DNA from: a virus
Taxonomy: Duplodnaviria > Heunggongvirae > Uroviricota > Caudoviricetes
Length of the DNA stretch: 64,000 nt
Reading direction: 5' to 3' (one strand)
Virus record (IMG/VR): IMGVR_UViG_2877962823_000010
A program made the position numbers. Numbering within the stretch: the stretch's first letter is position 1; each line of letters opens with the position of its first letter. This document shows positions 3,001 through 9,000 of the stretch, in pieces.

Positions 3001-6000
3001 GTTCACCGACAAAGAAATGATTAAAGAAATCAAAGAGCGAATCGGCAGCCTGGACGTGCGAGATAATATTGAGCGCCGTGCTTATGAAATTGCGTTGACT
3101 GCATTGACCACTGAACCATTCGCCACTATCGACACAGTGGGAATTGAGCTCGTTAAATATGGTTGTAACACGTTTATTTGTCCCGACAATTCGATGGAGC
3201 CGGGAAATGTACCACTATATATCGGCCTGCCACGAATTGATCCAGCAAGCCAGACTGCCAAGCTGTCATTCCAGGAATGGTTGTCAGAACAAAAAGAAAA
3301 AATAGACGTTGATTGCGGATGTGTAAGCATCGAAACGCTTACGCACTGGATGAAATCCGCTTATGAGGCTGGTAACTCTCCGGTAACTCCGGATAGTTGG
3401 ATAAGCTGTAGTGATCGAATGCCTGAAAAGGGCCAGAACGTGCTTATTTCGGTGAATTTCGATAGCTCTCTGGTTGAACCGCTAATATGCTCCGCACGCT
3501 ATACCGGAAGCACCTTTCGGCGCGGAGATGCAACGATTAAGCCGGGTAATGGTATTGAGCAAGCAACTCACTGGATGCCGCTACCAGAACCGCCGCAGGA
3601 GGTTAACCGTGGCTAACCTGCAACTTGCCGTTAAAGGTGAATACTTCGATGCCATGATTCGCGGAGAGAAAACGGAAGAGTATCGCCTGTTTAATGACTA
3701 CTGGAATAAGCGAATTATGTTCCGCGAGTATGACCGCCTGATTATCACAAAGGGATATCCGAAGCGCGACGATTCCAGCCGAAGAATTGATGTTCCGTAT
3801 GACGGATATGAAATCAAGACAATCACACATCCGCACTTCGGTGATAAACCGGTAAAGGTGTTCGCGATAAAGGTGAATATCGGCAATGAATAACAATCCT
3901 CGCACTCGCGGGGATTTCTTTTATCTGAACTCGCTACGGCGAGTTTTGTTTTATGGAGATGATTATGGCCTGTTCAACATTCAACCCTCTAACGTTACAG
4001 AAATACCAGCCAGACCCTGAAGATTTATGCTCACTGTGTGGCGGAAATCATGGCAAAGCCGCCATGATCGAATGTAAAGACAAAATCCACATTTGCCTTA
4101 ATTGCGTTGATGTCCTCGTTGATATCAAAAATGAGAGAGAAGATAAAAAGCGTAGCGAGGCTGTTCGCGCCTTAGATTCATGGATGCGAGATGGGTATAG
4201 TGCCGCGCAAATTTATGACTTAGCAATATCAAAAGGCGAAATACCAGGAGTGCGCATCGAATAAGACGTAACCAATATTCGAATTGAAGAACTGAAAGAA
4301 CACCAAGCCGCCTGATGGCGGTTTTTTCTTACACATGCAGAGGCAACTTATGCGCGAGTTAGTAAACCAACATAACCATGGCATTCAGCCAGTCATCACA
4401 CCTGTTGTACAGATAAATGCGAATGAATGGGTAACACTGGAGCTTTTAATGGCTGTAACAGGCCTGAGAAAAGGAACAATATTACGCGCCAGGGACAGTG
4501 CGTGGATGAACGGCAGAGAATATAAACAAATCGCCCCCGACGGAACGCCAAAGAAAAACAGCGAATGTCTCTATCATCTTCCTACCATCAACACTTGGAT
4601 CAAAAACCAACCCTTACCATCTCAGGATGTTTAATTCTTGTCCATAAGAGTATAACCTGAGCGTGCTCTTGGACGCAGGAGGAACAATGGCGAATTCAGC
4701 CTATCCAGCCGGCGTTGAAAATCACGGAGGAAAACTCCGAATAACGTTTAAGTACAGGGGTAAACGAGTGCGCGAAAATCTTCGCGTGCCCGATACACCG
4801 AAAAACAGAAAGATCGCTGGTGAGTTAAGGGCTTCGGTCTGCTTTGCAATCAGAACAGGAACGTTTGATTATGCCGATCGATTCCCTGACTCACCTAACC
4901 TGAAGCTATTTGGCCTGGTAAAAAAAGATATCACCGTCGGTGAACTGGCACAGAAATGGCTTACTCTGAAAGCAATGGAAATCGGTAGTAACGCCTTAAA
5001 TCGTTATCAATCAGTGATGAAAAATATGCTACCGAGGCTTGGTCCTGGCAGGCTGGCGTCATCGATTACAAAAGAAGATCTGCTGTTTATCAGGAAAGAT
5101 TTACTGACCGGGGAAAAGGGAAGCAGGAAAACCAGCACGTCCCGAAAAGGAAGAACCGTACCCACAGTGAACTATTACATGACAACAACAGCCGGAATGT
5201 TCAGCTTTGCCGCCGAAAACGGGTATCTGGAGAAAAACCCGTTTAATTCAATAACACCGCTGAGGAAATCAAAACCAGTGCCGGATCCACTGACCAGAGA
5301 TGAGTTTAGCCGTCTCATTGATGCCTGCCATCATCAACAGACCAAAAACCTCTGGACAGTGGCTGTTTTTACAGGGATGCGACACGGTGAAATTGCCGCA
5401 CTTGCATGGGAGGATATCGACCTGAAAGCTGGCACGATAACAGTGCGACGAAATTTTACAAAAATAGGTGATTTTACGCTACCAAAGACCGACGCAGGCA
5501 CTAACCGGGTTATACATCTTCTGGCACCAGCAATTGAAGCACTTAAAAACCAGGCGATGCTTACTCGTCTTAGCAGGCAGCATCAGATCACTGTTCAATT
5601 ACGCGAGTACGGAAGAACAATTTTGCACGAGTGCACTTTTGTTTTCTGTCCGCAAATCGTTCGCAAGAATCACAAGGCGGGTATTAACTACGCGGTAAGC
5701 TCCATCGGAGCGACATGGGATTCAGCAATAAAAAGAGCGGGTATCCGATCCCGTAAAGCGTATCAGTCACGCCATACCTATGCGTGCTGGGCTTTATCTT
5801 CCGGAGCAAACCCGACATTTATTGCATCACAGATGGGGCACTCCAGCGCCAGCATGGTCTACAATGTTTATGGTGCATGGATGCCTGAGTGCAGCGTGAC
5901 TCAAGTTGCCATGTTGAATAATGTCCTTAATGCCCGTGCCCCAGACGTGCCCCAAAGTGACCAGGAGGATGAAATAAAATTATATTTTTCAAAATGATAA

Positions 6001-9000
6001 ACCATATCCTTAGACATGTTGAAACCATGAAGCATTAAAAACACAGAATTACCGAAGATCGTCCAAGAGCATATATTTTTCAATCTGTTACACCTCATTT
6101 TGACCATGAAGAAATCAATTTTACACCGTTCTTTATACGTTCTTTTTTGCCCCAAATATGCCCCAAACAACCACATTTTGCCCCAATAGTGCCCCAAACA
6201 TTTAAGGGGATTTAACTTGATATTTCAGATAATTAACGCAAGTTTGCGATGCGAATTTGCGTTAATTTTCTGGATGAGGCATTTACCGTTACCCGTTCAT
6301 CAATATTCCGCTGATTGACAAATCCTCCAGAGCTATCGCATACTGACCGCACTGAACAAATAAGCGGTCTCCGCACCCGATAGCTTTGCGGCTTTTTTAT
6401 GCCTGCAATTTGGCATAGTTACATCCGTACAAAGGTCGGGTGGAGAGGCGTAATACAACACCCGCAAGGGGAATATGCCCAGAGCTTCTTATTTGGCTCA
6501 GTTGACACCCGACCGCCAGCTACTAACTGGCGGTTATAAACTAAACAAATAAGGAGGTCATCATGACCAGTCAACTCATCCCCGTATTCAACGGCACTAT
6601 CGCCAACGAAACCACTCTTCTCGTTAATGCCCGTGATTTACATACTTTTCTTGGAGTAGGTAAACGCTTTGCATCGTGGATTACAGAACGTATTGAAGAG
6701 TACGGATTCGTTGAAAATCAGGACTATATAGCTATTTCCCAGAAACGGGAAATAGGTTATGGGCGAGGGAAAAAAGACTACCACCTTACCCTCGATACAG
6801 CCAAAGAAACGGCGATGGTAGAGCGTAACGAAAAAGGCCGACAGATACGCAGATACTTCATCGAGTGCGAAAAGAAACTTCGCAACATGCAGTCGGCACA
6901 AGCAGAACCACAGCAACAATTCACAGACGAGGAAATCATCCTCCTCTGCTACATGCAACTCTGGATGGAAAAAGCCCAGGACCTCAGCAAACACCTGTAT
7001 CCGATCATGAAAGAGCTGAACTCCTCATACACGAACAAGCTGTATGACATTGCGTTTGAGACCATCTACATGGTGACGAAGAACAGAGATGTGCTACTGA
7101 GAGAGGCGGCACGGCTTGACCAGTCGAGTTTCGTAGTTCAGCGGGCCAGACCAATGCTGAAAAGCCTGCGGGCAAGGCAATTCGAATTCTAAAACCAAAG
7201 GAGCTTCGGCTCCTTTTTTCATGCCTGAAGGAAAGGAAAATGGCAGATATCATCGACAACGCCGCTGAAATCGAAGAATTGCAGCGCAATCTCTCCCTGC
7301 AAAAATACAAATCCGATAGTAATGCCCCATCTGCTACTCATTGTTGCGAGTGTGGCGATCCGATAGATGAGCGGCGACGCCTGGCTGTTCGTGGATGCAG
7401 AGCTTGCGCCAGTTGCCAGCAGGATATTGAACTTATCAACAAACAGAGAGGTGTGAAGTGAACATCAACACCACGATAACGATCGATACAGCCCTGAACA
7501 CCGGCCTAGCGCTCCTTGGTTATTTCTACATCATGTTCTGCAGCGGACGATGGCTGTCACTGTTGTTCATGAAAAAATGGAATAAACGCCGTAAGCAGGA
7601 GCAACGCCAAAAGGCAATAGATGCATTTTTCGAAGCCTTCGGTATTGACGGCATGGAACCAGGGGATCCAGCTCGCGCAATTAGCAGAGGGGGCGTAGTA
7701 ATCCTTGTATACCGGAGTGAAGAGAAAAATGAGCAAGATTGACTATCAGGCACTGCGTGAAAAGGCAGAGAAAGCAACTAAAGGAAGCTACATCGTAGGG
7801 CATACATCTGTTAACCAGCACGGCAATTTAACAGGAGTTTTTGTTTGCCAAAAATGGAAAGGAGAACCCGGTGGCGTGATTGCAGAATGTCATGTTAACT
7901 GCCTGGTTGAAACAGATGCTCAGGCTTATGCAACGCTGAATTCATAGCAGAGGCTAACCCGGCTACCGTGCTGGAACTGCTGGATGAACGGGAAAGAAAC
8001 CAGCAATACATCAAACGCCGCGACCAGGAGAACGAGGAGATTGCGCTTACGGTTGGGAAGCTGAGAGTTGAGCTGGGAGCAGCAGAGAACAACCTTATTG
8101 ATAGTGAATGCCATGTTGCTGAACTGGAAGAAGCGCTACGCGATAAGCAGGCGTTACTTGAAGCATCAGAGAAGCGCATAGCAGAACTGGAAGCCGAACT
8201 CGTAAGCCAAACTTACAAGTTGCCACACACGCAGTTTGAACAGATTGCTAACCTCTACGAAATGCAATTTGATGACGGTCGCACTTGTGCCTTTCACACT
8301 GATGCGCAAAAGGCTGAGCAATGGCTTCAGGCGTGCGACGGAAACAGGGTTCAGGAATACGTTAAGCTGGAACGGTTGCAGAATGCGCTGTCTGGCAACT
8401 CTCCGGTAACTCCGGATGGTTGGATAAGTTGTAGTGAGCGAATGCCGGATACCAAAACAGCCGTTCTTGTTGCCGTGGAGTTTGACAGGAAAGGTGACTG
8501 GCGAATGAAGTGGGCGACTTACATCCCGGGGCATCCTGACGCTAATGATGGGTGGATAATTCCTGGTGCGTCGTGGAAACCGTCACACTGGATGCCGCTA
8601 CCAGAACCGCCGCAGGAGGTGAACTGATGGAAAATGAAGGCGATAATATCATCACACTGGTGCAGCCAAAGCGCGATGAAGAGAAGCTGCTGAACATTAC
8701 AGTAACTGGCAGAAAAAACTACACACAACAGAGCTGTAAGCATCGGGCCATTGAGGTTCATGAACAGGATCACGTTATCCTGTGCTTGCAGTGCGGATGT
8801 GTTGTGGACCCTTTTCAGTATGTTCTGCGGTGTGCGAACGATGGTGAGGCTGTGGTGAGAGAGATTAGACAGCTTCATAACAGACACGATCAGCTCCGAG
8901 AATCTGTTGCCAGCCTCGAGCGTGAAGAAAAGAACACCAAAGCACGGTTGCGGGCAGCAAGAACTGCAATACTGTATGCGGAAAATGACCTTAAAAATAT

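Follow-up and report, generated by a model that had tools for sequence, protein, structure and literature searches.

Short direct repeats around the attachment site of a Shiga toxin (Stx) phage are very probably the arm-type binding sites of the phage integrase. They were studied in a 64,000-nucleotide stretch of the Caudoviricetes record IMGVR_UViG_2877962823_000010 (hereafter the window), which carries tandem prophages of the 933W/Stx2-II type at wrbA. Eight TG[C]CCCA words are found around the attachment sites, six in the phage attachment site attP (5937-6198) and two in a copy of the int-proximal pair at the attR junction, and it is to a heterobivalent tyrosine integrase that we assign them on comparative evidence. 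The sites exist, cluster and point one way, and they are conserved as DNA regardless of coding and of core specificity.

Arrangement of the repeats at the tandem attP junction

Within 262 bp (5937-6198), six copies of TGCCCCA are present on the + strand, two in the 3' end of int and four at 123-173 bp to the right of the crossover sequence TTGAAAC, with start-to-start spacings of 11, 200, 11, 20 and 11 bp (Table 1). An earlier note on this DNA had placed six repeats at these locations, and all of them are indeed on the + strand; the range it gave for the right arm, 6138-6200, does hold the repeats, but it begins a few bases early, the first one starting at 6146. No arm site was found on the minus strand in either arm of the attP. 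A minus-strand TGCCCCAT at 5840 was not counted, as it is the complement of ATG-GGG-CAC, the Met-Gly-His codons of Int box II; it is also present in the int gene of the Rac-like 683R6 and absent in VT1-Sakai and YP3. Similarly, a copy of CATGTTGAA at 5910, which codes for a conserved Ala-Met-Leu-Asn, was judged a coincidence.

TGCCCCA clusters more strongly than any other 7-mer in the 64-kb window: a stretch of 300 bp holds six copies, none of them overlapping. When the window was shuffled 200 times with its dinucleotides preserved, the densest 7-mer cluster reached three copies in 192 shuffles and four in the other 8. The number of TGCCCCAR matches is mildly high across the window (11 observed versus 5.8 expected), and away from the att regions the motif occurs only at 26154, 44547 and 55977. 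The clustering and the matrix scans described below thus answer in the negative the question, raised in the earlier note, of whether the motif is about as dense in other parts of the window. Of the three off-site matches, two (26154 and 44547) are lone TGCCCCAAA sequences, one in each of two 1310-bp copies (25993-27302 and 44386-45695) that are 99.9% identical to each other and have the size of the IS629 annotated in AP000400. By 7-mer clustering and comparison of the arm repeats, no second word common to both arms was found. Other word clusters in the window are CCTGCCG, with five copies near 29620 (~29618-29710), and GCTGGTA/TGGTAAT, with four copies near 50480 (~50470-50565), and the self-comparison of the window also revealed short tandem duplications.

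Two prophage copies are represented in the window, the first by its right end and the second in full, and the window also holds the 3' part of wrbA. As positions 1-6029 are 99.98% identical to positions 57429-63457, both being tandem copies of the prophage right end, the region 5900-6260 is the junction at which the two tandem prophages meet; it has the form of an intact attP and is neither an attL nor an attR site. The DNA of this region matches, with 100% identity, the attP regions of two phages from strain Morioka V526, the Stx1-converting phage and Stx2 phage II, and its identity to 933W-type phages is 99.7%. This junction was seen in only 5 of 5426 complete E. coli genomes, namely in two chromosomes (CP028685.1, strain 111, and CP133120.1, PNUSAE145590) and in three records assembled as plasmids.

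Alignment of attP, attR and four attL junctions of other wrbA lysogens placed the exchange within the 7-bp TTGAAAC: the position just to its left is an A in the bacterial and a G in the phage sequence, and each stays with its own left flank, so that the exchange must take place inside the 7 bp. The records AP005154 and AP004402 annotate a 7-bp attachment site that corresponds to 6019-6025. The right-arm repeat is merely labelled "arrangement g / gg; region III" in these records of Sato. Only a 4-bp inverted flank, CATG, is evident around the overlap, and the resulting core, CATG-TTGAAAC-CATG, is unlike the arm word TGCCCCA. The right half of the core, ACCATGAAG at 6024-6039, recurs at 6103-6118, 79 bp deeper in the distal arm, and this second copy is variable in the O26 and O104:H4 phages.

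In accordance with the earlier note, attR, which consists of the int arm, the core and the adjoining 3' part of wrbA, carries the left-arm pair (63365-63384) and lacks the right-arm set, and the latter is present in the four attL junctions mentioned above. The right arm varies by a 31-bp unit holding two sites, giving four copies in the window phage, Stx2 phage II and the wrbA phages of O26 and O104:H4, and six copies in 933W, Stx2 phage I and EDL933 (6146-6200 compared with 1800-1882 of AP004402). In the O26 and O104:H4 wrbA phages, CGCCCCAAA is found in place of distal site 4. Regarding the attR junction itself, the int stop codon overlaps an ATG (ATGA; attP copy at 5994), and at attR (63422-64000) this ATG opens a predicted in-frame hybrid of 13 residues followed by the remaining WrbA sequence up to a stop codon at the end of the window. 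The hybrid joins WrbA presumably at about residue 17. Integration would therefore swap the WrbA N-terminus rather than simply truncate the gene.

Conservation of the words in phages with other cores

Int homologues with 43-73% identity were collected from phage records, from one genome per bacterial species and from IMG/VR. Of the 95 loci of relatives, 91 have the pair, written as TG[C/T]CCCA-N4-TG[C/T]CCCA, on the int strand, and across 468 kb it never occurs on the other strand; the four exceptions are two loci with CGCCCCA as the first site, a 455-bp fragment and a 32%-identical outlier. An equivalent of site 1 was present in all 93 informative relatives, twice as CGCCCCA, and the 11-bp period of the pair is kept in relatives with other cores (yehV, yecE, ttcA and others). 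Conversely, 67 of 124 exact TGCCCCA-N4-TGCCCCA occurrences in an IMG/VR sample (54%) are located at the 3' end of an Int homologue encoded on the same strand.

One could instead assume that the int-proximal pair is kept merely as code for the C-terminal peptide (F/Y)(A/V)PxxP(H/Q), and that the copies in the right arm are a functionless 31-bp slippage duplication. This peptide is visible in most homologues, and the 31-bp variation of the right arm described above would agree with slippage. However, among 19 distinct sequences the codons found in the motif are GCC or GTC (19/19 ending in C), CCA (19/19) and CCC (18, and one TCC), leaving no synonymous variation at three fourfold-degenerate positions, whereas all four codons are in use for the Val and Gly residues that are invariant in the VYGxWM block, 20 codons upstream. 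In addition, the reading frame differs between the two sites, and the sole amino-acid changes within them, Ala/Val and Pro/Ser, match the tolerated C/T position of the DNA word. In Rac (E. coli K-12) and in 683R6, the integrase ends earlier and the pair is located just 3' of the int stop codon. The synonymous invariance, the frame difference and the non-coding pair in Rac therefore show that selection acts on the DNA and not on the peptide. Conservation of the left pair for coding only was rejected on the synonymous-site count and the Rac pair, and, with the distal copies recurring in otherwise unalignable arms, we consider the peptide explanation as a whole extremely improbable.

Where the distal arm of a phage with an unrelated core could be recovered, it likewise holds the word, oriented as in the window, 105-125 bp past the core. 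Three distal sites are present in VT1-Sakai (target yehV), five in phiP27 (target yecE), five in PhiR49_2, three to four in Rac (target ttcA), four to five in a metagenomic intact attP with a yecE-like core (L121) and three in an attL-type junction (L166), next to the six of 933W/Stx2-I. The spacings across these phages are 11, (10), 19-20 and 11 bp, and the words recur even in phages whose arms cannot otherwise be aligned. With a weight matrix derived from the relatives only, the sites at 6148, 6179, 6190 and 6159 took ranks 1 to 4 of 128 kb; the int-arm sites scored lower because their flanks are G+C-rich coding sequence. In the Yersinia phage YP3, a distal arm was not found downstream of int. 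Conservation in the att regions of related phages, on which the earlier note had made its interpretation depend, is thus seen even where the cores are unrelated, and together with the arm-binding domain of Int it supports the reading of the words as arm-type sites at the level of sequence comparison.

The conserved distal arms also bear on the idea that the right-arm repeats serve a local function, either as operators of the downstream antirepressor operon (6563 onward) or as a coding part of the minus-strand open reading frame (ORF) 5901-6197. The ORF is annotated as hypothetical (ORF C43 in AP005154) and a promoter-like site, TTGACA-18-CATACT at 6315-6344, is located nearby, upstream of an AntA/AntB-type antirepressor gene (6563-7192). 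On the other hand, a distance of 120-170 bp separates the repeats from the promoter-like site downstream of them, and the same repeats are found beside differing genes in other phages: VT1-Sakai has dinI with an SOS box there, Rac has ynaM and phiP27 has L58. The ORF crosses the crossover, and is hence split in every lysogen, and the phage variants differ by an indel of 31 bp, which is not divisible by three and would shift its frame; we therefore rejected it as a gene and regard a local function of either kind as very unlikely. A 22-nt inverted repeat (6226-6272; 86% complementary, 3-nt spacer) is located directly past the last arm site and may be an operator or a terminator.

More distant sequences were also inspected. 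The Int protein of Pseudomonas phage KT1 is 28.5% identical to that of the window, belongs to PF12167 and has the same PTGVE..G..LRIWF strands. In the KT1 genome (PQ316073.1, 2250-2480), a core similar to the 3' end of a tRNA is flanked on either side by TGCCCTAA/TACCCTAA pairs with an 11-bp period; the arm words are TGCCCTA and PTGVEMNGKQLRIWF, and a terminator-like hairpin is located between the int-side pair and the core. A further IMG/VR locus of 9 kb without an Int homologue (IMGVR_UViG_3300029288_000212, 5945-5990) contains four 11-bp units in perfect tandem, CTGCCCCACCC, and behind them words similar to TACCCTAA. These units may be the distal arm of another relative or may be unrelated.

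The integrase, its putative excisionase and candidate accessory sites

Int has an arm-binding domain: its N-terminal part matches Arm-DNA-bind_2 (PF12167, E=6e-26) and is combined with a PF00589 catalytic domain. Among nine relatives, eight show their highest conservation within Int in the arm-binding domain, at 68-81% identity as compared to 51-66% for the core-binding segment, a pattern that fits a single arm word presumably serving divergent cores. A PDB sequence search with Int gave a match to the core-binding and catalytic part alone (aa 133-283), and Foldseek gave no significant match. The product of the excisionase-like gene, whose true start may be internal to the ORF, is homologous to the annotated xis products of VT1-Sakai, phiP27 and YP3 and to XisR of Rac.

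We infer that it is Int, rather than the excisionase (Xis), that binds the words. The alternative, which we regard as unlikely, is that they are sites for the DUF1233 excisionase or another DNA-bending accessory protein, and that the true Int arm sites are elsewhere or absent. Such an assignment would agree with the presence of a homologous excisionase beside every such integrase examined, KT1 with its DUF1233-like protein included, and with the typical form of the sites of recombination directionality factors (RDFs), which are closely spaced direct repeats; the Gifsy-1 Xis, for instance, binds a tripartite direct repeat (PMC2603039). However, the words are found on both arms and are hence kept at both junctions, whereas RDF sites are usually confined to one arm. 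Furthermore, the dedicated arm-binding domain of Int needs a repeated target and no other word is common to the arms, the strands of this domain are conserved down to 28% overall identity in step with a near-constant motif, and a separate conserved box at 6055-6070 would be available as a site for Xis.

Several observations nevertheless weigh against an assignment to Int. As a Xis accompanies every Int, the comparative data alone cannot separate the two proteins as binder, and gene presence or absence does not help because KT1 encodes a DUF1233-like protein as well. The pairs were not recognisable in Cronobacter phiES15 and Pseudomonas CF60a, whose integrases are 27-32% identical, and no binding or recombination experiment on TGCCCCA sites was found in the searchable literature. 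Lastly, the site in the int arm of the window that resembles a binding site for integration host factor (IHF) is weak, with two mismatches.

Sites of the latter kind were sought as sequences deviating from the IHF consensus WATCAANNNNTTR at no more than one position, for which the background is 0.66 per kb. In all five distal arms compared, such a match is located ~50-65 bp to the right of the core; VT1-Sakai has it on the - strand and the other four on the + strand. Of ten int arms, those of the relatives and the window's own, eight have a match 30-40 bp past the second int-arm site; KT1 is the only relative without one, and the window's own site exceeds the mismatch threshold. This site is part of a direct repeat with 6072-6094. 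The conserved box, AAGA[T/A]CG[T/C]CCA[A/G]GAGC, lies 30-45 bp to the right of the core in 933W-type phages, VT1-Sakai, phiP27, PhiR49_2 and L121; L166 has a looser version, AATATCGTCCAGGAGC, and the box is absent from the distal arm of Rac.

Table 1. Features around the attachment sites of the window (positions in the 64,000-nucleotide stretch)
Feature	Position	Strand	Remarks
Excisionase-like gene, Xis/RDF candidate	4335-4634	+	Pfam PF06806 (DUF1233, putative excisionase), E=1e-30, aa 24-93
Tyrosine integrase gene (int), 444 aa	4663-5997	+	Last ~60 nt hold the int-proximal arm sites
Int-proximal arm-type site 1, TGCCCCAGA	5937-5945	+	Codons Arg-Ala-Pro-Asp of int; within repeat GTGCCCCAGA (5936-5945)
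Int-proximal arm-type site 2, TGCCCCAAA	5948-5956	+	11 bp past site 1, other frame; within GTGCCCCAAAG (5947-5957)
Weak IHF-like site TTTCAAAATGATA, candidate H' equivalent	5987-5999	+	Two mismatches to WATCAANNNNTTR; between int-arm sites and core
Crossover (overlap) TTGAAAC	6019-6025	.	CATG flank on each side; from attP/attL/attR comparison
Conserved box AAGATCGTCCAAGAGC, candidate site for Xis or other accessory protein	6055-6070	+	Assigned by position only
IHF-like site TTTCAATCTGTTA	6078-6090	+	One mismatch to WATCAANNNNTTR; between core and distal arm sites
Distal arm-type site 1, TGCCCCAAA	6148-6156	+	Relatives-only matrix rank 1 in window; within TTTGCCCCAAAT (6146-6157)
Distal arm-type site 2, TGCCCCAAA	6159-6167	+	Relatives-only matrix rank 4; within ATGCCCCAAAC (6158-6168)
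Distal arm-type site 3, TGCCCCAAT	6179-6187	+	Relatives-only matrix rank 2; within TTTGCCCCAATA (6177-6188)
Distal arm-type site 4, TGCCCCAAA	6190-6198	+	Relatives-only matrix rank 3; within GTGCCCCAAAC (6189-6199)
Int-proximal pair, second copy	63365-63384	+	At attR (int arm, core and wrbA 3' part)
Crossover TTGAAAC at attR	63447-63453	.	From attP/attL/attR comparison

By analogy to lambda, we propose that the N-terminal PF12167 domain of each Int protomer docks on a TGCCCCA word, while the central and catalytic domains of the same protomer would hold the CATG-flanked core around TTGAAAC. IHF would bend the DNA between core and arms, at 6078-6090 and, more weakly, at 5987-5999, and the bends would fold the int-proximal pair (~65-85 bp off) and the distal sites (~125-175 bp off) back onto the core. 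The folded arms could then bridge attP to wrbA (attB) in a lambda-style intasome. After integration, the pair remains beside int at one junction, and the other junction receives the four distal sites. Excision would also need the DUF1233 excisionase, possibly acting at the box at 6055-6070, and a division of labour among the six sites between integration and excision would be part of this scheme.

Relation to known attachment sites and significance

For comparison, the lambda attP sequence was examined directly. Its named parts are the arm-type sites P1, P2 and P'1-P'3, the IHF sites H1, H2 and H', and X1/X2/F. Both systems have a heterobivalent integrase with an N-terminal arm-binding domain, an excisionase gene upstream of int, and repeated arm words that are unlike the core and stand to its left and right; the overlap has 7 bp in lambda, and in the window the exchange maps within 7 bp. 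Of the two sets of words, the closer one adjoins the 3' end of int, at 52-83 bp from the core centre in lambda and 66-85 bp in the window, and the farther set is located on the other arm, at 100-145 bp and 126-176 bp, respectively, with IHF sites (IHF-like sites in the window) between core and arms. The two differ in the word itself, which is TGCCCCA in the window and CAGTCACTAT in lambda (consensus C/AAGTCACTAT), and in the number of sites, 2+4 in the window (2+6 in 933W) as compared to 3+2. The sites of the window all point one way and are paired at an 11-bp period, whereas P2 of lambda is inverted, and the int-proximal pair lies within the int frame by 40-60 nt, while in lambda the int gene reaches only the edge of P'3. 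The lambda-style layout suggested in the earlier note is thus borne out for sites on both arms of the core, but it does not extend to the motif, to the 3+2 distribution or to an inverted P2-like site.

The arm-binding domain of the window integrase belongs to a Pfam family, PF12167, other than that of lambda. All these differences taken together place the element outside the lambda Int family sensu stricto and in the IntBPP-1/PF12167 group; the IntBPP-1 subgroup of tyrosine recombinases was defined by Smyshlyaev et al., 2021 (PMC8138268). With other integrases of this group, including IntR of Rac and those of VT1-Sakai and phiP27, the window integrase shares the architecture of PF12167 and PF00589 domains, and the same arm word, pair spacing and attP layout are found in Rac, VT1-Sakai, phiP27, PhiR49_2, YP3 and many prophages. 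In contrast, the cores and targets within the group vary (wrbA, yehV, yecE, ttcA and, in KT1, a tRNA-like core). In the attP site of mycobacteriophage L5, adjacent pairs of arm sites are present on both arms, in a number exceeding what any one reaction needs. The window resembles L5 in its paired arm sites on both arms, whereas the integrase lineage, the motif and the host factor (mIHF) are unrelated. TGCCCCA arm sites are the expected kind of element for a lambdoid phage. A description of arm sites for the IntBPP-1 subgroup, or for the 933W, Stx-phage or Rac integrases, was not found in the searchable full-text literature, and an earlier one in subscription papers is possible.

The Shiga toxin genes of E. 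coli O157:H7, O26 and O104:H4 reside on phages of this type, and the existing annotation of their integration machinery consists of the word "integrase" and a 7-bp core. To this, the present analysis adds an arm word, its geometry and an attP map (arm pair, IHF, core, box, IHF, arm pairs) as experimental targets, which concern the integration, excision and tandem lysogeny of these medically important phages. As the conservation is family-wide, the pair also provides a simple sequence marker for both prophage ends in the PF12167 integrase family.

More tentatively, and as a possibility we would not yet bet on, one might speculate that a single arm code, TG[C/T]CCCA pairs at 11 bp, is common to all Rac/933W-type (PF12167) integrases, and that co-resident prophages could bind each other's arms. 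If this were true, the wrbA Stx2 and yehV Stx1 phages of O157 Sakai, or the tandem copies in the window, could cross-bind, which could help or hinder integration and excision of the partner. Similarly, the polymorphism between four and six distal copies could tune the excision and spread of Stx phages, and, through the pair inside the int frame, Int could exert feedback on the int gene itself or on the hybrid int-wrbA transcript.

Taken together, the repeats supply a word and a map for Stx-phage attachment sites and reveal a clear constraint at the DNA level on the int tail. The case would thus illustrate how the tail of a protein-coding sequence may be constrained by the DNA sites that its own product recognises.

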